Source: a virus (taxonomy: Duplodnaviria > Caudoviricetes). Taken from it: a stretch of 64,000 bases of DNA. Shown here in pieces: positions 7,767 to 51,197 of the stretch. Both the position numbers and the translations under genes were made by a program. Location of the stretch: the IMG/VR virus record IMGVR_UViG_3300029955_000001, one strand, 5' to 3'. Position 1 is the stretch's first letter, and the number at the start of each line of letters is the position of its first letter. Under the pieces are notes generated by a model, which was given only the letters and a program-made list of their open reading frames with translations, did not search any database and was not told the origin of the DNA.

Positions 7767-7774
7767 GTGATATA
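7767..7774 (-). promoter_or_regulatory. early promoter motif TATATCAC
   Basis: Context ACTTTAGTGATATATGACT is shared with the chimallin promoter and lies about 42 nt upstream of the ATG. Confidence 0.6.
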
Positions 7775-9531: not shown

Positions 9532-10637
9532 TCTACCTCCACCATGATACTATTCGCAGCATCTAACATTAAATCAGATGCGCCATTATTCACCATACGT
9601 TCAATTAATAATCCTTTAAGATTATCTTTCGTTAACGTAATCGGCACAAATAATTCTTCTTTATCTACAATTGATTTTTCTTCTTCTATAGTTTTTGATG
9701 GTAATTTTGACCAACTATAAAAAGGAAACTGTCTAATTAGCATTTCCATATTTTCAAATATGGGGTTATCACTATCTGCCTCAACACGCACAAATGAGTT
9801 AGCTGGTAAGTCCTTTACTTTTTCTTCAATAAGTGCTAGAGTGTCTGGTAGTGTTAAACCAAAACAATGAACAGTAATGAATTTCTTTGCTCCTTTATTT
9901 TCAACAAATGTAATTTGATATTTTCCATTATCTCGTACTGTTGCACGAATATGTCCTTTTGGTTCTTCTTCACCATGTGCTAATCTATCAAAAGAACCTT
10001 GTGCAATAATGCGATCAAACTGTGTATAGGTGTGTATGTGTCCAATTAATATTAAATTCTTAACTAGGGATAAATACGCACTGGCGTTATGAACTGGTGA
10101 TTTAACGTACGAGGGTAACTGATGATCGAACGTACCATGCATTATCGCGTAATCTACTTTAGTAAGCCCTTTTGCTTTTAACAGTTCATGGACTTGGCTT
10201 AGTGTTTTATCAGTTGTTGTCTCCCATTCATCAGGTACATAGAGCACGGTTATCCCGTAGCGCTCTATGTACTCGATGGATAGTTCTTTAACGTATTTTA
10301 GTTCAGCGCCAATGCCTGCTAAGGTGTTCGTGTTTGGAAATATCTCTGATTGTTTCCAATCATGCGAAGGTGTCCCTTCCAATACACGAACTAGAATATC
10401 GTGCTTCTTGCATAGTCGCAGAAAATGCGCTACCCAGAATTTAATATCCCATACTTCTTCATCTGATAAATTCATTAAATCGTGAAATACATCACCAGCT
10501 AAAAAAATAATATCTAATTCAGCTGTTTCAGCATTATCAGGAAAAGCTTTTTTAAGATTTTCAATAATCTCAGCTGTAGGATTCTTCCTATGGCCAAGAT
10601 GCAAATCAGAAATCACTGCTATTTTAAGTTCCTTCAT
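9528..10637 (-). CDS. SbcD/Mre11-like metallophosphoesterase nuclease
   Basis: Motifs ISDLHLG, FLAGDVF, GTPSHD, MHG and IGHIH. Confidence 0.85.
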   Translation of the reverse strand: MKELKIAVISDLHLGHRKNPTAEIIENLKKAFPDNAETAELDIIFLAGDVFHDLMNLSDEEVWDIKFWVAHFLRLCKKHDILVRVLEGTPSHDWKQSEIFPNTNTLAGIGAELKYVKELSIEYIERYGITVLYVPDEWETTTDKTLSQVHELLKAKGLTKVDYAIMHGTFDHQLPSYVKSPVHNASAYLSLVKNLILIGHIHTYTQFDRIIAQGSFDRLAHGEEEPKGHIRATVRDNGKYQITFVENKGAKKFITVHCFGLTLPDTLALIEEKVKDLPANSFVRVEADSDNPIFENMEMLIRQFPFYSWSKLPSKTIEEEKSIVDKEELFVPITLTKDNLKGLLIERMVNNGASDLMLDAANSIMVEVE

Positions 10638-10711
10638 TTAAATATCTCCAAGAAGGATATTTGTTTAACGCATGGTCGCTCATAACGTTGCGTGAAGTGT
10701 TAAAATAATTC

Positions 10712-11296
10712 TTATTCTGATATAAATTCAAAATCGTCCGTATCATCGACTTCGTCTGTGGTGTTGTTAATTATTTTCTTTTGATCGGCAGTAAGCTCTA
10801 CAATAGGCAGTCTGCCGTATCTTGTAAAAATACTGTTCCATATAGCCAGATCTTTTAAAACATTACCCGGAACTTTCATGATAAGCGCACGCTTGGTCAA
10901 TTCCGTTGTAAGATAACGAAGTCCTTGTCTCGGACTTTGATTTGCTATCTGTCCGGCAGTAGTAACTACAGATGAAATAGGAACCTTATAATCGCTCGGT
11001 TTCACTGGATTTACTGCTTCTCTATTTAATAGAGGAGGAACTGTAAACAAAATATTATCATTTCTATCAACAACATGAACAGACTTGTACGGACTCCCAG
11101 CGTAGTTTAACCATGTTTCCATATTCACGTTGTAGTGTAATTGCTCATCTCCAGCAAACACTGGTAAGAAAACACCAACAAACACACGCTCTGGTAAACG
11201 TTTAATATCTTCTTCTGCTATTTGAATTAATCGTTTTGTAACAATGTTACTATCGCCAGTTTGTTTTTGTTCTGCAAATTTATCAATGTTAATCAT
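10712..11296 (-). CDS. conserved hypothetical protein
   Basis: 194-aa ORF in the conserved core block. Confidence 0.6.
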   Translation of the reverse strand: MINIDKFAEQKQTGDSNIVTKRLIQIAEEDIKRLPERVFVGVFLPVFAGDEQLHYNVNMETWLNYAGSPYKSVHVVDRNDNILFTVPPLLNREAVNPVKPSDYKVPISSVVTTAGQIANQSPRQGLRYLTTELTKRALIMKVPGNVLKDLAIWNSIFTRYGRLPIVELTADQKKIINNTTDEVDDTDDFEFISE

Positions 11297-14809: not shown

Positions 14810-16672
14810 TTACTGCCAGCGGCTGAAACCACGATTTGCACCAGACGGTGTCGCGTTTTGATTATAACCACTGCGGAAGATACCGCTCGATTCAGGGGTC
14901 AACAAAGTATGACCCGAGAACTGTGAGCGAGCACGTTCGTAATTACCAAGATCCTGATACGAGTATACAGGCTTCAGAACCAAACCAGCTTCTTGGCAAC
15001 CCTTAACTAGTGCGTTAATGAAACCGACTTCAAACGTGACGCGGCGAGCGTAGCCTGTGAATACCGCGTTATTGCAAATTGATTGGATGATACGTTTCCG
15101 TTCATACAAGCGTTTCGGCAGAGGGATATGTGTGCTTGCAAAAGAATCAGACCACAACTTAATTGCACCTGGGTCTTGTGCGCCGACACAATTCAACACT
15201 GCCAAATAATCAATATCGCGAATGTCTGCACGTTCACCACGAGAGTTCGTGTAATGACCCAGATGGATACGATTGTATTCATCAGTTGCGACACGGCCCT
15301 TTGGATCAAAATACTTTACAAAGTTACCATTCGTAAGCTCGTTAGCGGCTTTAAGAATAGCGATATTTGCTTGGGTATTCCCAGCGGCAGCTGCCGAGAA
15401 TACTTCATTGAACCAGGTCTGAGCACCGCATTCCGGCACATCCAAGGACACCACAAGACCAGGACGAATTGTTGCCTTAACCAACTGCCCGAGATTTTCT
15501 GGTTTAAACTTATCGGCATGTGTGTCAATGCGTTGACCAACGCCACTTGGATCATTGCTAAAGTTAACTTCGATGCCAATAGCACCGATATCACGGAAGT
15601 CTACGTCGCCAGAAGGAAAATCCCTTGGACGGAAACCTTGAACCCAAGCGTTGTTTTCGCCGAGGCCAACGACTGGAACTAGCGCCAATAATTGCGCTGG
15701 AATAGTAAGCAGTTCGGTTGATTCCATCGTTGTTGCAACAAACCGAGCAGCGTAACGCTGAAAAGATTGTTGTGTTGGATCTGGAATACCGTACAAGTTT
15801 TGTGGCGCAACGATAGGGTCCCAGAAGATATCCAGGAAACCACCAATTCGCGCGATAGGTGCTTCACGTCCAGCATCTTGCTGTTGTGTTTGTTGCGACT
15901 GCACTGGTGCAGCGGTAAAATCCAATACGATATCACTGCGCAATGGCGCACCGACCGCATCTTGTTGTTGTGGCATTGCAAACTGTGTTCGCACTGACAA
16001 AGTGGAATCATTCTTAGCGTTTGCAATATTGATATCTTCAAAGTTCTTGCTATTAATTTCAAGCTCAGAAGTACATGCAAAAATAGCATTTGCAATCAAT
16101 ACGTGCAATGCCGATTTGTCTTCAACGTTAAAGTCCTTAGGAACAACACAAGCACCTGCGTTACGTGGTGTGTCTTGCGGAAACAACCGCTGAACGTAAC
16201 CAAGCACAACACCCTTCAAAGTATCGTTGCAGGAATCACCAGCAGTATAGAGAATCTCAACGGATTGACCGTTAATCATTTCTGGCTTAGGTGTGCGAAT
16301 ATCCGCAGACGCTTCGAGCAACAACGAGTGATACGCAACACCCAACAATGGGTTCTGCTTATCACGAACAGCGAGAATCAAAATAGAAATCGACAAGTTT
16401 GGTGTTTGTTCTTTTTCAATTGGAACCAAATTGATTTCAAAACTCTTATCGGCTTTTTCTGTGATCATCTCAGTCATTGCTTTGGTGATCTTGTTCAATG
16501 CTTCCGATGCCTGTGTGCGACTGAATGCAGGCCGTGACAACTTGCGCAGATTGGTGAAGCTGTACCCAGTGCTATCGGCTTTGGTTTGATGATCACGATT
16601 AGGTGCAAAACTACCAGTAGGGTTGTTTTGAACTTCTGCACCATTGCCAGTACTTTCGTCTTTAATAGCCAT
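14810..16672 (-). CDS. chmA: chimallin, phage nuclear shell protein
   Basis: 620 aa, directly upstream of nvRNAP beta-prime N as in phiKZ gp54-gp55. It has its own early promoter and terminator and extended N- and C-terminal tails. Confidence 0.8.
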   Translation of the reverse strand: MAIKDESTGNGAEVQNNPTGSFAPNRDHQTKADSTGYSFTNLRKLSRPAFSRTQASEALNKITKAMTEMITEKADKSFEINLVPIEKEQTPNLSISILILAVRDKQNPLLGVAYHSLLLEASADIRTPKPEMINGQSVEILYTAGDSCNDTLKGVVLGYVQRLFPQDTPRNAGACVVPKDFNVEDKSALHVLIANAIFACTSELEINSKNFEDINIANAKNDSTLSVRTQFAMPQQQDAVGAPLRSDIVLDFTAAPVQSQQTQQQDAGREAPIARIGGFLDIFWDPIVAPQNLYGIPDPTQQSFQRYAARFVATTMESTELLTIPAQLLALVPVVGLGENNAWVQGFRPRDFPSGDVDFRDIGAIGIEVNFSNDPSGVGQRIDTHADKFKPENLGQLVKATIRPGLVVSLDVPECGAQTWFNEVFSAAAAGNTQANIAILKAANELTNGNFVKYFDPKGRVATDEYNRIHLGHYTNSRGERADIRDIDYLAVLNCVGAQDPGAIKLWSDSFASTHIPLPKRLYERKRIIQSICNNAVFTGYARRVTFEVGFINALVKGCQEAGLVLKPVYSYQDLGNYERARSQFSGHTLLTPESSGIFRSGYNQNATPSGANRGFSRWQ

Positions 16673-16755: not shown

Positions 16756-16763
16756 GTGATATA
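16756..16763 (-). promoter_or_regulatory. early promoter motif TATATCAC for chimallin
   Basis: Context CTTTAGTGATATATGACTGTATTTGTTT is nearly identical to the 7762-7789 site. Confidence 0.62.
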
Positions 16764-25923: not shown

Positions 25924-26943
25924 TTACAGAACAAGTCCTGTATCGGTATCTGGCTGATCTACTTTTGTCAAGATGCTTTCACTTGCTAAACGTGCTTTTT
26001 GTCGCGCAGCCGCGTCTGCTAGAATTTTTGACAGGTGATTGTATTCACCTTTAATAATTCCATCACTAGTAACAAAGTGCATTGGAATACGGCCCTTCAG
26101 CGTGTCAGTACAGCTTTCTGGGATATAACCATTACATTGATAATCTGGAGTGATTGGGAACGGTGTTGTCATTCCTTCTACAGCCAAGGTAGCAACGCTG
26201 ATAATGTTTCCAATGTTGCTAGGGATATCATCGGTCTTTTCAATCAACGACAACGCGACGAGCTGTGGTGTCTTGAACGAAGTCACTTTGTTGAAATTCA
26301 ACCAATGAGCTAGATCTTTAGAATCCAACTCTAGATTTTCACGGGAGAACAAAACACATAAACCAGTGATAATTTCAATGATGCCGCGATCAGCAACAAT
26401 GCGTGGATCTGGGTCATCGCGTGATGTTACGTTCTTATTTTGGACGTAATACATCACAACAGGCAATTTACGCAAGCCTGCAATTGACTCATACGACTTC
26501 AATGTCTTCAGTGTGTTTTCAGCAGCAAGAGCCGATTCAATTCCGCCAATAGCAATACAAACTGTTGGTGTATTTTGTTCTAACAATTCACTCATGATCA
26601 ATGGCGCAATAACAGAACCAGAGCCACCGCCTGTTGACGACAGAACAATAGTAAGATCAGCCGATGGAAACTTCTGAAGAATAGCGCGAATGTGACGGCT
26701 AATCTCAGCATGATTTTCACGACGAACCTTTCCAGACCCATCAAGTCCTTCAAGTACATAGGAGTTATCAGAATTGATATGCTTATGTGAATTAGATTTA
26801 CTTGCGTCAACATAAACAACTTGCAGCATTGCAAAGCCATCTTCAACCTGACCTTTATGCTTTTCTAATTGATTACCAATATTCCAACCAGCACCACCAC
26901 AGCAAATAACAAGTACTTCACCTTTTGGCGTCGACATTTCCAT
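25924..26943 (-). CDS. phuZ: PhuZ phage tubulin
   Basis: CCGGAGWNIG (T1 loop), VDAS, SSTGGGSGS (tubulin signature) and LDSKD (T7 loop), with an acidic C-terminal tail ending GLVL. Confidence 0.93.
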   Translation of the reverse strand: MEMSTPKGEVLVICCGGAGWNIGNQLEKHKGQVEDGFAMLQVVYVDASKSNSHKHINSDNSYVLEGLDGSGKVRRENHAEISRHIRAILQKFPSADLTIVLSSTGGGSGSVIAPLIMSELLEQNTPTVCIAIGGIESALAAENTLKTLKSYESIAGLRKLPVVMYYVQNKNVTSRDDPDPRIVADRGIIEIITGLCVLFSRENLELDSKDLAHWLNFNKVTSFKTPQLVALSLIEKTDDIPSNIGNIISVATLAVEGMTTPFPITPDYQCNGYIPESCTDTLKGRIPMHFVTSDGIIKGEYNHLSKILADAAARQKARLASESILTKVDQPDTDTGLVL

Positions 26944-27006: not shown

Positions 27007-27906
27007 TTGTATCTAATGAGATATTATGATGAATTGTATATACCTCACTATAGTGATATATGGTTCAAAACGAATAGGTTAACAAATAAAGGAATTGTTA
27101 TGTTAAGTGCACTTAGCAAGGCAACGGATGAGTGTAAGTTTAGGATACCAAGAACTATCTTAGACGTCGTATTTATTCGACGTACTCAGAACTGGAAAGA
27201 TTTACCTGTCAGTATAGATGAAATGATTCTTAGAAACGTGATACGCCCACGTGTAATGATAGATTGTAATTTATTAGGCGGTACTGAAGCTTTTATTAAC
27301 TTAGAAGGTGTTCAGTATACCCGTACAGATGATTATACTTCTGTATATAGAATACCAAAAACTTTAACTCAAGGACGTAGTATTATCGTAGTTAAGAATA
27401 TAACATTTACTGATCCTACAAAAATATCTAGCTACGGTATTGCTGCTGGAACACAGAACACTACCATGTTACAGACAGGTAGCGCTGTAATGGATGCTCA
27501 TGGCAGTATACCAGTAACATCAACAGCTCGCGTGCAATTGATTGGTGAGAACGTTGTAATGGTAAGAGATACAGTTGTTTTGCCAGCTAATATTTATTTA
27601 CGTTGCATATTGGAAAATGATGAAACTCTTTCTCATTTACAATTAGCTAGTTATAGGCATTTCTCAGAACTATGTGTCTTAGCTGTAAAAGCATACATTT
27701 ATAATGAATACGTTATTGAAATGGATGTCGGCGAATTATTAGGTGGTATGCAATTAGGTCGATTTAAAGAGATTGTGGATACCTACGCTGAAGCAGATGA
27801 ACTTTATCGTACCTACTTAGTTGAGAAGTGGCAGAAAGTAGCGGTAATGCAAGATACTGAACAATTCACTAGATTGCTCAGATTAATGATAGGTGGAAGC
27901 AGATAG
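27007..27906 (+). CDS. conserved late/virion protein, possible neck or head-tail adaptor; likely start 27100
   Basis: SD AAAGGA before MLSALSK. Function is only a weak guess. Confidence 0.45.
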   Translation: MYLMRYYDELYIPHYSDIWFKTNRLTNKGIVMLSALSKATDECKFRIPRTILDVVFIRRTQNWKDLPVSIDEMILRNVIRPRVMIDCNLLGGTEAFINLEGVQYTRTDDYTSVYRIPKTLTQGRSIIVVKNITFTDPTKISSYGIAAGTQNTTMLQTGSAVMDAHGSIPVTSTARVQLIGENVVMVRDTVVLPANIYLRCILENDETLSHLQLASYRHFSELCVLAVKAYIYNEYVIEMDVGELLGGMQLGRFKEIVDTYAEADELYRTYLVEKWQKVAVMQDTEQFTRLLRLMIGGSR

Positions 27907-29049: not shown

Positions 29050-29214
29050 TTATGCCGCTGATGCAGCTTTTGATACGGCTTGTGCCGCGAGGTCGGCGGC
29101 GTTTGTTTCGGATTCCTTAGTGTTCTTGTCCTTTTCTTCTTGGAGACGCATTTCCGTTACCACATACGCACATCCAAGAAACCCAACAAGAACGCCCATG
29201 ATGAATTTGCCCAT
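29050..29214 (-). CDS. 54-aa membrane microprotein (not in ORF track)
   Basis: MGKFIMGVLVGFLGCAYVVTEMR...; SD AGGAG. Confidence 0.6.
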   Translation of the reverse strand: MGKFIMGVLVGFLGCAYVVTEMRLQEEKDKNTKESETNAADLAAQAVSKAASAA

Positions 29215-29215
29215 G

Positions 29216-29440
29216 TTATAATACTCCTAAGTTAATGTCTTTCGATTCGATTGTTTTTCCATTAGTCGATTTCTCAACTAATACTTTTACCATCTTTTCA
29301 CGCTGTGCTATTTTATCAGCTTCGGCTTTAGCTAGTCCTGCTTTGACCAAGACTTCACCTTTTAGGTAAATCTTCTGTCCAATTTGTGCACCTATTTGTT
29401 GGACGATACCGCCTATAAATTTCTCAATTAAAACGTTCAC
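29216..29440 (-). CDS. 74-aa microprotein, amphipathic Gly-rich N-terminus
   Basis: GTG start after AAGGAGAGG. Confidence 0.55.
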   Translation of the reverse strand: MNVLIEKFIGGIVQQIGAQIGQKIYLKGEVLVKAGLAKAEADKIAQREKMVKVLVEKSTNGKTIESKDINLGVL

Positions 29441-29532
29441 GTCCTCTCCTTTTTATTTAGATTAGCGATCACGCTGTATCGCTAATCTAAACGACCTGTG
29501 AGGGCACAGGTCGTCTTGCCGATGTTTGTGGG

Positions 29533-29703
29533 TTACGCTGCAGGTGCGTCTGTTGCTGGCGCTGGTGTAGCGACATCGCCTACTGTTGCGGTTGTGGTCT
29601 TGTTGCCAAAGCTGATGTGGTCTTTTGCGAAATAGGCAGCTACACCACCAACAACGATAACGCCAAGAGCGATGAGGCCATTCTTCAGATTGATGTTCAG
29701 CAT
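29533..29703 (-). CDS. membrane microprotein
   Basis: MLNINLKNGLIALGVIVVGGVAAYF...; SD AAAGGA. Confidence 0.62.
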   Translation of the reverse strand: MLNINLKNGLIALGVIVVGGVAAYFAKDHISFGNKTTTATVGDVATPAPATDAPAA

Positions 29704-29754
29704 GATATTTTCCTTTTGGGTGAGTAATAAATTTAGATCAAGCAAGAGAATTCT

Positions 29755-29800
29755 TACTAAATCTCACAACTGTTATATATGTCTGAAATATTCTAGGATC
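29755..29800 (-). promoter_or_regulatory. repeated early promoter module, copy 1
   Basis: Minus strand GATCCTAGAATATTTCAGACATATATAACAGTTGTGAGATTTAGTA. Confidence 0.65.
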
Positions 29801-29870
29801 AAGTTTTCAAACACGCTCCTTACTTACTTTACTACATGTACTTCTACTACAGATTTTTTACAATTACGAA

Positions 29871-30161
29871 CTACGCTGGATTGAGGTTTTCGGTAAACGT
29901 AACATCACTTACCGAATGACTTTCTTTAATGATTGAGGCTACCTTGCTTTCAAACTCCTCCATGAGCCTTCTGGCTTCTTGTGTGTGAAACTTGGCCTCC
30001 TCCATTGTTGTTTCGTCGTCGCAGTTACGTTCACCGGACAACAGCTCTGCTACTTGTTTTGCGATCTTGCGATTGCGAAAAGCAGTTGCTACTATTCCAG
30101 TTACTGCCAAGGTTACTACGCTGCCAATTGCTACGAGGATTTTTGTTTTTGCGGATGTCAT
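29871..30161 (-). CDS. single-pass membrane protein
   Basis: ILVAIGSVVTLAVTGIVATAF followed by a charged helix. Confidence 0.62.
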   Translation of the reverse strand: MTSAKTKILVAIGSVVTLAVTGIVATAFRNRKIAKQVAELLSGERNCDDETTMEEAKFHTQEARRLMEEFESKVASIIKESHSVSDVTFTENLNPA

Positions 30162-30230
30162 GGTAATTATCCTGAAATTGAAATAGTTTGAAATACGAGT
30201 TAAGTTATTTCTTAAAGAAGTATTGTGATT

Positions 30231-30521
30231 CTACTTCTCTGTGTAGTTCTTTTGTGATCTTGATGATTTTTTTTCATCGCCATTCAAATAAGCTTCTTGA
30301 AGACGATCTTGAAACTTTTGAATATCGGCTTTGCTGAAAGCAAAACCAACTCCATTGTTTTCCTTCAAGATAATTTTCAGATGAACAATAGACCGCATTG
30401 CCGGTATCGTGCTATCTAGCACTTTCTTTTGTTTTTCTTCTTTGTTCTTCGATGAAAAAAGCTTAGCGACGCCACCTCCTATTGCTAGTACGGCTAAGCC
30501 AATAACGGCTTTTATGTTCAT
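30231..30521 (-). CDS. single-pass membrane protein
   Basis: MNIKAVIGLAVLAIGGGVAKLF; SD CAGGAG. Confidence 0.62.
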   Translation of the reverse strand: MNIKAVIGLAVLAIGGGVAKLFSSKNKEEKQKKVLDSTIPAMRSIVHLKIILKENNGVGFAFSKADIQKFQDRLQEAYLNGDEKKSSRSQKNYTEK

Positions 30522-30543
30522 GATGCACTCCTGATGTGTTAAG

Positions 30544-30744
30544 TTATAGATTGTGTTCTGCTTTATAACGACGAAGAGCATCTGGTTCCATATTACGTTC
30601 GTATTCTGCTTCTTGTTCCATTCTAGCGCAATAGCTATTTATCTTGGCTTTATGTTCAGACTCTTTTTTCATTTCAAAATACTTAAGAATAAGAACACCA
30701 CCAGCAATACTAACTACTGCTAATGTTACATGAACTCTCCACAT
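30544..30744 (-). CDS. single-pass membrane microprotein
   Basis: MWRVHVTLAVVSIAGGVLILKYF; SD CAGGAG. Confidence 0.6.
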   Translation of the reverse strand: MWRVHVTLAVVSIAGGVLILKYFEMKKESEHKAKINSYCARMEQEAEYERNMEPDALRRYKAEHNL

Positions 30745-30895
30745 GGCATTCTCCTGATTTAAATGTAAATAATAAAAAAGACCATTAACAATAAATAAAA
30801 CCAACCTTATTGTTAATGGCTGGAAATCGTTTTATGCGTGAGGGCTTTCAAAAGGAGGTTATATGTCCTAATGGCCCTCGGTAAGCACGGATAGA

Positions 30896-31498
30896 TCAGG
30901 AAGTTAAGTTCCTGATTTCAGCAAGGGCCTTCCGGCCAATGTTTGCTATCCGCATCAGATCGTTGTCGCTCATCTTCGACAACATATCCACTGTTACCTT
31001 CCCGCCAAGTTCGTCGGTAAGATTATTCTTGACTCTTACTGATAACTTAGAGTCTTGAATCAGTGTTGTATTAGGCACCCGCGTTAAAACGGCAGCGCTC
31101 TCTGGTACTATAAATCCACGATGTTGAAACACCGCTACTTTATGAGTACCGCCATCAGCCGTAGCTGCCTCAGAGCTTACGCGAAGCGTAAAGGCATACA
31201 TCGGTATGATACCGACCTTGATTAACGCATCTTCCAGCGCTGACATCAGGTAAGGCGCACCTCCAATCATTGCGGAGGTAATGGGTGGTTCACCCAGTGC
31301 TCTTGCGTATTCTCTATGCGCGACAGCTATATCAGCAATGCTGGTCGCTGCCTCACGAATGAAAACTGATGTCGGCATACTGTCAAAGGTCAACAGCGCT
31401 ATGAGTTGAAGCAGGAACCCACCAGTAACATCAACCAAACCAGCGAGCAGCTGGTCCTTTGTTGCTTTGTGTTGCGTTAAATTCAAGATTGCATTCAT
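30896..31498 (-). CDS. candidate Csx20-like ring-nuclease domain fused to an RNAP alpha-CTD-like HhH domain
   Basis: N-terminus NLTQH..T.DQ, AMIGGAP and YAFTLR.S.E....DG...K...F.H.GF. C-terminus LSVRVKNNL...TVDML...SDNDL.RI.NIGRKALAEI. Confidence 0.5.
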   Translation of the reverse strand: MNAILNLTQHKATKDQLLAGLVDVTGGFLLQLIALLTFDSMPTSVFIREAATSIADIAVAHREYARALGEPPITSAMIGGAPYLMSALEDALIKVGIIPMYAFTLRVSSEAATADGGTHKVAVFQHRGFIVPESAAVLTRVPNTTLIQDSKLSVRVKNNLTDELGGKVTVDMLSKMSDNDLMRIANIGRKALAEIRNLTS

Positions 31499-31699
31499 TT
31501 TGTTTCTCCAGTATAAAAGGGTGTGGGTTTTTAAAGCTACTCGTGTGAGGGCAGTGGTATATCACTACGCATAGTGACCCGTTTCTCTGACCCTCAGGCT
31601 AATAGCCTAGTGGATAATAATCCAGGATGTTCTTGAAATAAGTTTTGTTGCGTTTTACGAGGCCGCCGCCTAGATACACATTGGATTCCCTTCAAGAGC

Positions 31700-31739
31700 G
31701 TTAAGAAGTAAGCAAGCTCCCGATTGCTTACTTCTTAAC
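31700..31739. terminator. perfect 16-bp hairpin
   Basis: GTTAAGAAGTAAGCAA/TTGCTTACTTCTTAAC. Confidence 0.55.
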
Positions 31740-31762
31740 TCATTATCAGTTAGTGCAAACCG

Positions 31763-31897
31763 TTAAGGCTTAGGCTGCTTTCGCTTTGCGTTTGCCGGTC
31801 CAAATCTATCTCGCCCCTGCATACGACAGTATTGTGCTTTCGCTGGCAATATCAAATCTATATACATTGGTGACAGTTTGTTATAGTGTCTTTCCAT
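31763..31897 (-). CDS. 44-aa basic microprotein (not in ORF track)
   Basis: MERHYNKLSPMYIDLILPAKAQYCRMQGRDRFGPANAKRKQPKP; GGAGGT upstream, immediately after a promoter module. Confidence 0.4.
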   Translation of the reverse strand: MERHYNKLSPMYIDLILPAKAQYCRMQGRDRFGPANAKRKQPKP

Positions 31898-31902
31898 ATA
31901 AC

Positions 31903-31948
31903 TACTAAATCTCACCTCCAGTATATATGTCTGAAATATTATAGGATC
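31903..31948 (-). promoter_or_regulatory. repeated early promoter module, copy 2
   Basis: Minus strand GATCCTATAATATTTCAGACATATATACTGGAGGTGAGATTTAGTA. Confidence 0.62.
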
Positions 31949-31981
31949 AAGTTTTTCTCAGACATATACACTGGTTGTTTC

Positions 31982-32464
31982 TTAGTACCTATTCCAATTA
32001 GCGTCCCATTCGATATCGCTTCGAAGGTGACGAAGTTTAGAATCCATCGACGACTTGATTTCTCGAGTAGCGTCTCTGACAGCGTTGTTCACTTCTGCCT
32101 TCATCGCATTGATGATCTCAGCCTTCATTTCCTCGACTGCCGCACGTTCGTTGAAACGAGTAGCGTATTCTGGATCAGCCGCCATACGTGCAATATGTAA
32201 ATCATGCTCTTGTTTACGCGCTTCCCTAGCTGCTTTGCAATCTTCTGCATTCTTACGATTACGCAAGATGATAATCTTTGCGGCATCAGATACAAACGCA
32301 ATGTCCTTCAGACCGATTTCAACAGTATATACTTCAGTATTTAGCGCATCTTCGGCAGCACGTATTTCCTCACCTCTCTTGCGTTCTTGTATTTTACTGT
32401 AGACACCAGCACTTACTAATGCTGTAAGTCCGGTTACCAGCAAACCAGCAATGATCTTGTTCAT
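31982..32464 (-). CDS. single-pass membrane protein with coiled-coil tail
   Basis: MNKIIAGLLVTGLTALVSAGVY; SD GGAG. Confidence 0.65.
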   Translation of the reverse strand: MNKIIAGLLVTGLTALVSAGVYSKIQERKRGEEIRAAEDALNTEVYTVEIGLKDIAFVSDAAKIIILRNRKNAEDCKAAREARKQEHDLHIARMAADPEYATRFNERAAVEEMKAEIINAMKAEVNNAVRDATREIKSSMDSKLRHLRSDIEWDANWNRY

Positions 32465-32840: not shown

Positions 32841-33023
32841 TCAGCTTCTAGCGGCAATGATTGCTTTTGTAACCTTCCATCCAATCGCGTATCCTACAAC
32901 AGCAGATACAGATAAAATACAAAGAAAGACTGGTATACTCATACCTTTCTTTTCTTCATATTCTTTTACTTCTGCGTCAGCTTGTTCCGGTGTTATGTGT
33001 ACGTTTTTCATGACATTCTCCAT
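32841..33023 (-). CDS. membrane microprotein
   Basis: IPVFLCILSVSAVVGYAIGW hydrophobic segment. Confidence 0.58.
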   Translation of the reverse strand: MENVMKNVHITPEQADAEVKEYEEKKGMSIPVFLCILSVSAVVGYAIGWKVTKAIIAARS

Positions 33024-51189: not shown

Positions 51190-51197
51190 GTGATATA
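51190..51197 (-). promoter_or_regulatory. early promoter motif TATATCAC
   Basis: CCTTAGTGATATATGTG context, just downstream of the protease terminator. Confidence 0.55.

Follow-up and report, generated by a model that had tools for sequence, protein, structure and literature searches.

A Csx20-like domain fused to an RNA polymerase alpha C-terminal-like domain in a nucleus-forming jumbo phage, a candidate ring nuclease against type III CRISPR

The locus and its two-domain protein

The stretch of DNA analysed here (the window; 64,000 nucleotides of the IMG/VR virus record IMGVR_UViG_3300029955_000001, Caudoviricetes) carries on its minus strand a complete gene for a two-domain protein (30896..31498; ATG start, 200 codons plus stop, from the open reading frame (ORF) list and translation). 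Direct reading of the sequence places a Shine-Dalgarno GGAG (31506..31509, minus strand) 7 nt 5' of the ATG. Residues 1–135 (31094..31498) form a Csx20/MJ1673-family domain, predicted to be a ring-nuclease module that binds cyclic oligoadenylate (cOA), and residues 147–197 (30908..31060) form a C-terminal helix-hairpin-helix domain resembling the C-terminal domain of the RNA polymerase (RNAP) alpha subunit (alpha-CTD). Residues 136–146 (31061..31093), the gap between both matched domains, make up the linker; all three segments lie on the minus strand. An identical protein (P0002) is encoded on a 13-kb JGI metagenome contig, with the precomputed Pfam tags PF27247, named ‘MJ1673’, and PF03118.

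A first-pass annotation, made without database searches, had taken the virus for a nucleus-forming phage, and the window bears this out: it encodes a chimallin shell protein (14810–16672), a PhuZ-type tubulin (25924–26943), split multisubunit RNAP genes, a tail sheath and a terminase. Its source is a phiKZ-like nucleus-forming jumbo phage, as chimallin, PhuZ and the split RNAPs indicate. The two-domain gene stands out in composition, with a G+C content of 47.8% against 37.5% for the window, above every 2-kb composition bin (maximum 43.4%). The elevation is common to the N-terminal (48.9%) and C-terminal (45.1%) halves, suggesting fairly recent horizontal acquisition, possibly as a single unit.

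The same annotation had proposed a Csx20-like ring nuclease on the strength of three motifs, all of which are present in the ORF: NLTQHKATKDQ (residues 6–16), IGGAP (78–82) and YAFTLRVSSEAATADGGTHKVAVFQHRGF (101–129). A word-indexed search returned 1,409 relatives, all tagged PF27247, and an exhaustive search 1,596 relatives among 50%-identity representatives. The quoted motifs are exactly the (near-)invariant columns of this family of ~1,600 representatives, and therefore reflect more than chance. The window protein retains every such column (N6, T8, H10, Q16, (M)IGGAP 77–82, Y101, S/T104, R106, E110, D115-G116, K120, F124, H126 and G128-F129), including all family-invariant polar residues. 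The N-terminal domain is a member of the Csx20/MJ1673 family (PF27247).

We compared this family with bona fide Csx20, represented by an alignment of 18 proteins fetched from Campylobacterota that exceed the cut-off of the NCBIfam model CAS_Csx20 (NF040559). Csx20 scored above that cut-off in 52 of 401 Campylobacterota genomes and in the control genome of M. jannaschii. Profile–profile alignment (hhalign) matched the two families over the whole domain (probability 96.5%, E 8.9e-10, 116 columns), with seven residues in register with (near-)invariant Csx20 columns (window/Csx20: H10/H7, Q16/Q13, Y101/Y93, R106/R98, E110/E102, F124/F116 and H126/H118), while T104 and K120 fall opposite a T and a K that are conserved there. 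The pattern that the first-pass annotation had given for Csx20 (FSH.LT..Q ... YATT.R...E...G...K.S.F.H..F) likewise matches real Csx20 genes. A part in the ring-nuclease function of Csx20 has been proposed for residues of the types His, Arg and Asp/Glu (PMC8284326), and the candidate ring-nuclease polar residues H10, R106, E110, D115, K120 and H126 are all present in the window protein.

Against NF040559 itself, the window protein scored 22 bits (E 1.6e-4) over residues 91–129 alone, compared with a curated cut-off of 70 bits; relatives in its clade reached 25–41 bits and full-length bona fide Csx20 124–165 bits. All 27 sampled relatives matched the model (best E 9.8e-16). Given the 22-bit score and the position of the protein in a mobile-element sister clade, described below, ‘Csx20-like’ is the right name and ‘Csx20’ overstates the relationship: the assignment in the first-pass annotation stands in the former sense and not in the latter. 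PHROGs contained no family matching the window protein, a Pfam scan up to E 10 gave no DUF1874 match, and a sequence profile search of the PDB found no solved relative of the N-terminal domain.

Structure prediction points the same way. Modelled alone with AlphaFold2 (AF2), the N-terminal domain is an alternation of beta and alpha elements with a predicted local distance difference test score (pLDDT) of 96. Among Swiss-Prot models, MJ1673 was the sole significant match (E 1.1e-6, template modelling (TM) score 0.56/0.60). The nearest ESM Atlas clusters are MJ1673-family (TM 0.79–0.91, root mean square deviation 1.6–1.9 Å, ~80% viral), AFDB clusters annotated ‘CRISPR-associated protein’ and ‘Csx16’ matched at E 2e-5 to 3e-4, and the best matches in BFVD were uncharacterised viral proteins of ~128 aa. 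The predicted fold is a derived Rossmann type, similar to CARF (CRISPR-associated Rossmann fold), with a central beta-sheet between helices as modelled for Csx20.

The domain most likely forms a symmetric homodimer, judging from its predicted complex. Its ipSAE score was 0.60, compared with 0.11 for the best control, and so passed the test, whose mark 20 of the 30 proteins solved as same-chain pairs attained, along with one of the 23 solved as single chains. Partner pLDDT was at least 89, runs shared at least 97% of contacts, and the predicted symmetric interface comprises residues 38–48, the invariant IGGAP motif and the last strand. Many relatives are tandem duplicated and thus covalent pseudo-dimers (P0003–P0007, P0122–P0129; also L167, 10001–10807); these natural tandem-domain proteins fit a dimeric unit.

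The C-terminal assignment also held: Pfam RNA_pol_A_CTD (PF03118) matches residues 147–197 with 31.1 bits (E 1.9e-7, profile positions 15–63 of 67), above its gathering threshold of 23.8 bits. Several NCBIfam rpoA models match through their CTD part only (residues 144–197), far below cut-off, and a PDB search recovers Bacillus subtilis alpha-CTD chains at E 0.008. We take R265, N268, C269, G296, K298 and S299, the ‘265 determinant’, to be the positions through which E. coli alpha contacts UP-element (upstream promoter element) DNA. In E. coli numbering, the alignment to B. subtilis places R155, N158, G188 and K190 at R265, N268, G296 and K298, with N159 and A191 replacing C269 and S299, so that four of the six contact residues are kept. 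The dimerisation and assembly domain of alpha is absent, residues 1–135 being the Csx20-like domain, and the window protein is therefore not a polymerase subunit. In the full-length AF2 model both domains are confident and residues 143–150 are the sole segment below pLDDT 50; as modelled, the layout reproduces that of RNAP alpha, with a dimerising N-terminal domain, a flexible linker and a CTD.

Mobile-element relatives and the rarity of the fusion

A tree of 145 domains, built with a quick method, separates 24 Csx20 sequences from the CRISPR model from 121 viral, plasmid, metagenome-assembled genome (MAG) and window sequences with support of 100 on both sides, although a separate probe was used to fetch each group, which makes the sampling bimodal by construction, and intermediates may therefore exist. 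The nearest neighbour of the window protein is encoded on a viral contig (52% identity), and viral and ‘genomic’ sequences are intermixed.

The two groups differ in their surroundings. A CRISPR array lies within 10 kb of 10 of 20 bona fide Csx20 loci, compared with none of the 80 viral and one of the 51 genomic loci of the window's clade (1/131 vs 10/20, Fisher p 1.5e-9). The window protein belongs to a large sister clade carried by mobile elements (phages and plasmids) and unlinked to CRISPR arrays. Clade members are flanked by phage hallmark genes (ERF, Mu Gam, NinG, terminases and methylases), and 141 neighbouring proteins include no coherent set of type III cas genes. PADLOC gave two ‘Cas10’ matches in this neighbourhood (E 2e-9), which we discounted: Pfam assigns HD domains to three of the neighbouring proteins and RNase Y to two, so that cross-matching to an HD domain is the probable source.

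Relatives are encoded on at least 154 viral contigs of IMG/VR. One relative resides in a phage and another beside the relaxase and type IV secretion system genes of a conjugative element; as phage relatives, tblastn recovered Pasteurella phage Pm86 and Rhodothermus phage RM378. The tandem-domain relative P0006 lies two genes from a gene for the Anti-Pycsar protein Apyc1 and 6 kb from a Lar restriction-alleviation gene, a locus that looks like a phage anti-defence island. A 269-kb IMG/VR contig encodes the domain with no C-terminal tail together with a chimallin homolog (E 1.3e-47), so a second nucleus-forming phage carries the domain.

Some further loci deserve mention in their own right. On a 70-kb contig (L004), two adjacent MJ1673-family genes (10001–10381 and 10460–10975), one of them divergent, have a DUF488 gene as neighbour and lie downstream of ORFs that are very large (1,410 and 1,793 aa). 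In one Campylobacteraceae MAG, the two types occur together on separate contigs (G003:C64:5428-5787 and G003:C76:26902-27252 [L035]), the bona fide Csx20 scoring 138 bits and the copy of mobile-element type 34 bits, and its mobile-element-type locus is the only one in the clade with a CRISPR-like array within 10 kb. Copies in MAGs of the Candidate Phyla Radiation (CPR), which make up much of the clade's ‘genomic’ set, include L015, L016, L019, L023, L036, L040, L043, L047, L049 and L050; these may be prophages or have some other role.

The fusion itself is exceptional. Of the 144 domain-containing ORFs across all fetched loci, 117 stop no more than 10 residues beyond the domain, and none has an alpha-CTD-like tail. 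No fusion other than the window's own copy occurs among the 150 best representatives and 120 best homologs, BFVD holds no two-domain match, and a scan against a local Pfam copy found no domain in ten longer relatives or in four with C-terminal tails. A word search with residues 138–200 likewise retrieved the window's own copy alone, though distant fusions could escape such a search. Alpha-CTD fusions do occur in other jumbo phages with other partners, as in CcrColossus gp133 (284 aa), where the alpha-CTD stands at the N-terminus and is fused to an unrelated module. Phage Csx20-type enzymes were already suspected; the combination of a Csx20-like domain with an alpha-CTD was found nowhere else among the proteins searched, in agreement with the earlier remark that no described protein was known to have it.

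Upstream sequence and neighbouring genes

Upstream of the gene, TATACCAC (31554–31561, minus strand) lies within the near-palindrome AGTGATATACCACT (31553..31566, minus strand), a degenerate copy of a promoter-like core that recurs in the window. The first-pass annotation had called TATACCAC early-promoter-like; it is present at that position, but with 60 matches at one mismatch against 56 expected in the window the 8-mer is not enriched, and we rejected it as a stand-alone signal. What does recur is the partly palindromic consensus AGTSATATATCACTAAAGTGAG, found on the minus strand at 2679–2686, 7767–7774, 16756–16763, 27053–27060 and 51190–51197, 42–119 nt upstream of five minus-strand genes, including chimallin. 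Matches to the core are enriched in intergenic DNA (10/25 vs 13.8%, p 0.001), and the core, AGTGATATATCACT, is itself palindromic. TATATCAC/TATATTAC cores on other genomes have been read as phiKZ-type early promoters. Scans for sigma-70-type promoters and terminators gave background levels only, and Rfam and tRNA scans of the upstream stretch found nothing credible.

Evidence for expression comes from assembled RNA-library contigs of four peat studies, which carry no strand, start site or timing. Such contigs cover the ORF in all four, at a very uneven depth that argues for RNA rather than carried-over DNA. Two of them bridge from 31715–31739 into the ORF and thus run through the promoter-like site from further upstream, so transcription may start upstream of the promoter-like copy. 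Contig ends at 31739 were considered as a transcript end and rejected as an assembly flip, because the letters hanging loose there come from the other strand of a hairpin with a perfect 16-bp stem.

RNA contigs are far deeper just upstream of the gene (31550–31715) than over the ORF: a 166-nt contig there reaches a depth of 149 in X3, compared with 5–14 on the ORF, and 31–35 in X2 and X4. Whichever strand is taken, the segment folds well (z −4.9 and −5.1); it could represent a small RNA of high abundance or else a stable 5' leader, encoded on one or the other strand. Further upstream, a 50-codon ORF (31763–31915) is flanked by two strong hairpins, one with the perfect 16-bp stem (31699–31740) and one at 31914–31978 that was inferred from spurious Rfam matches to miRNA precursors on both strands.

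The gene is set in a run of small minus-strand genes (54–160 aa; 29050–30804, 31982–32464 and 32841–33023), most of which, judged by eye, encode a single hydrophobic segment resembling a membrane span. The one gene of this run that was scanned (31982–32464) has no Pfam family.

Proposed function and comparison with known systems

We consider the protein to be probably, though with real room for doubt, a phage counter-defence factor in which a cOA-cleaving Csx20-like dimer has gained a DNA-binding module. In this proposal, whose cOA cleavage, anti-CRISPR effect, DNA binding and expression timing we infer, the homodimer would bind cyclic tetra-adenylate (cA4), and possibly also cyclic tri-adenylate (cA3), made by the Cas10 of a host type III CRISPR system, and would cleave cA4 to linear products. 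This would hold the cOA-activated effector nucleases inactive for as long as the phage genome is enclosed in its protein nucleus. The flexible linker would suspend one alpha-CTD from each subunit and so allow bivalent binding of A/T-rich DNA, for which we prefer a role in built-in autoregulation, of the kind exerted by anti-CRISPR-associated (Aca) proteins, or in DNA localisation; this would be the least certain step.

Published work makes such a target plausible. Type III is the CRISPR type shown to be active on nucleus-forming jumbo phages, through the cOA-activated effector NucC (bioRxiv 10.1101/2022.06.20.496707); it acts on them because it detects exported mRNA and kills via cOA-activated effectors. 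One purified Csx20, analysed by high-performance liquid chromatography, breaks down cA4, and with the enzyme at a higher concentration cA3 is degraded too (PMC12409355); viral ring nucleases act as anti-CRISPRs (PMC12409355, PMC13148439). No ring nuclease from a nucleus-forming jumbo phage was found described in the literature searched.

Several observations weigh against this proposal. The window protein falls below the NF040559 cut-off and matches that model through the C-terminal motif only, and a long, fully supported branch parts its clade from CRISPR-linked Csx20. Activity may have been lost or changed within the mobile-element clade. Many cellular copies of the clade are in CPR MAGs (Saccharibacteria/Paceibacteria), and CPR genomes seldom have CRISPR, type III included. 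Foldseek searches of the PDB gave no match at E ≤ 0.001 with either model, only weak rows for the CARF domains of Cam1 and Csm6. VIA-align comparison with ~48,000 chains was led by generic Rossmann folds of the Asp/Glu racemase type (Z ~7), with SAVED/CARF proteins at Z 5–6, an outcome compatible with a ring nuclease without being diagnostic of one. The promoter-like copy before the gene is degenerate, with a T>C change in the core and no AAAGTGAG tail. A hydrolase of a diffusible signal has no obvious need for a DNA tether.

Alternatively, the protein could be in the first place not an enzyme but a cOA-sensing, DNA-binding regulator similar to Csa3, in which cA4 would reposition the two alpha-CTDs and alter phage or host transcription when type III immunity fires. 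The arrangement of sensor dimer, flexible linker and DNA-binding domain is that of Csa3, a transcription regulator stimulated by cA4 (PMC8284326). Among more than 140 relatives none shares the fusion and nearly all stop directly behind the domain, which suggests an added function beyond hydrolysis, and the gene's own upstream region contains a near-palindrome. Nevertheless, we regard this as unlikely: the polar residues common to active Csx20 enzymes are all kept and catalysis is not obviously lost, the DNA of such phages is enclosed in a chimallin shell, and no DNA target has been tied to the protein. In phiKZ-like phages, both early and late transcription are carried out by phage RNAPs that lack an alpha subunit.

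The ligand itself could be another: rather than serving specifically against type III CRISPR, the protein could hydrolyse or soak up a different immune signal, for example the cyclic trinucleotides of cyclic oligonucleotide-based antiphage signalling systems (CBASS), or it could be a non-catalytic cOA sponge. Such a role would suit a clade unlinked to CRISPR arrays (1/131 loci) and common in CPR MAGs, with one member two genes from Apyc1, which targets Pycsar signals. It would also suit the side activity of Csx20 on cA3 (PMC12409355) and, for a sponge, the Csx15 family members that bind without cleaving (PMC13148439). Yet cA4 is the only experimentally defined ligand or substrate in the family (PMC12409355), the residues common to both clades are retained, and one would expect a mobile element's counter-defence gene to lie apart from CRISPR loci. 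We therefore judge a different ligand, or binding alone, to be rather improbable.

The N-terminal domain might instead be mainly a dimer scaffold presenting two alpha-CTDs as decoys, which would occupy UP elements or capture activators whose usual contact is host RNAP alpha and so help to shut off the host. In favour of this, the alpha-CTD exceeds the Pfam cut-off with four of its six DNA-contact residues retained, the arrangement of the protein imitates RNAP alpha, phiKZ-like phages are independent of host RNAP, and another jumbo phage, CcrColossus, has in gp133 an alpha-CTD fused to an unrelated module. A decoy nonetheless seems very improbable: a protein serving purely as a scaffold could dispense with ligand-site residues of the Csx20 family, all of which are preserved here, and there is no sign of binding to any host factor.

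There is a small chance that the halves of the protein are coupled, the dimer sensing and eventually consuming cA4 while altering its grip on DNA through the two alpha-CTDs. If so, coupling cA4 to DNA would yield either an anti-CRISPR that regulates itself, a single chain being both enzyme and Aca-like repressor, or a sensor through which the phage reacts transcriptionally once host immunity has detected it. The fusion is a natural experiment on whether a counter-defence enzyme gains from built-in DNA binding, be it for autoregulation, localisation or sensing. The window gene and the standalone copy on the 269-kb chimallin contig are candidate answers of nucleus-forming phages to type III defence, and the mobile-element clade is large (~1,600 50%-identity representatives, at least 154 IMG/VR contigs) relative to the four phage genomes published.

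The closest characterised protein is Csx20, a CRISPR-associated cA4 ring nuclease described by Hoikkala et al. 2025 (PMC12409355). The two share homology over the whole ~125-residue domain, an MJ1673-type predicted fold, the H, Q, Y, S/T, R, E, K, F and H residues, and a dimer that is predicted for the window protein and modelled for Csx20 (PMC12409355). In contrast to Csx20, the window protein has AMIGGAP in place of LIQGDFG, scores below the cut-off, belongs to a separate clade, is phage-borne with no adjoining array, and bears an extra alpha-CTD.

Homologs of csx20 have been noted in four phage genomes (PMC12409355), and a csx20-aca14 anti-defence operon has been reported in Pasteurella multocida (PMC13551039). 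These phage and prophage genes share with the window gene their use by mobile elements and a proposed role in degrading cOA against type III CRISPR. They differ in that the Pasteurella regulator, the ribbon-helix-helix protein Aca14, is a separate gene, whereas in the window a different DNA-binding fold is fused to the enzyme-like domain, and in that the carrier here is a nucleus-forming jumbo phage. AcrIII-1/Crn2 (DUF1874), an anti-CRISPR ring nuclease of viruses (Athukoralage et al. 2020, cited in PMC12409355), is a small dimeric enzyme that destroys cA4 and thus the functional model for the proposed role; it is of a different family, as the window protein has no DUF1874 domain, and it has no DNA-binding fusion.

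Two further comparisons concern the architecture. Csa3 similarly combines a dimeric, cOA-binding, Rossmann-like domain with a DNA-binding domain (PMC8284326); unlike the window protein, it belongs to another CARF family, uses a winged helix-turn-helix, is host-encoded and promotes immunity. RNAP alpha shares PF03118 membership, the R, N, G and K contact positions and a flexible linker to a dimerising N-terminal domain, but the window protein lacks the alpha N-terminal domain and has N159 and A191 as the equivalents of C269 and S299.

As far as sequence and structure analysis reach, then, the reading as a Csx20-like domain joined to an alpha-CTD is supported. The gene resides in a phage, and its clade has an array nearby at none of the 80 viral loci and at a single one of the 51 genomic loci, which sets it apart from CRISPR-associated proteins in the proper sense: the window protein is a Csx20/MJ1673-family protein of mobile elements to which, uniquely among the proteins searched, an alpha-CTD is fused, encoded by a nucleus-forming jumbo phage.

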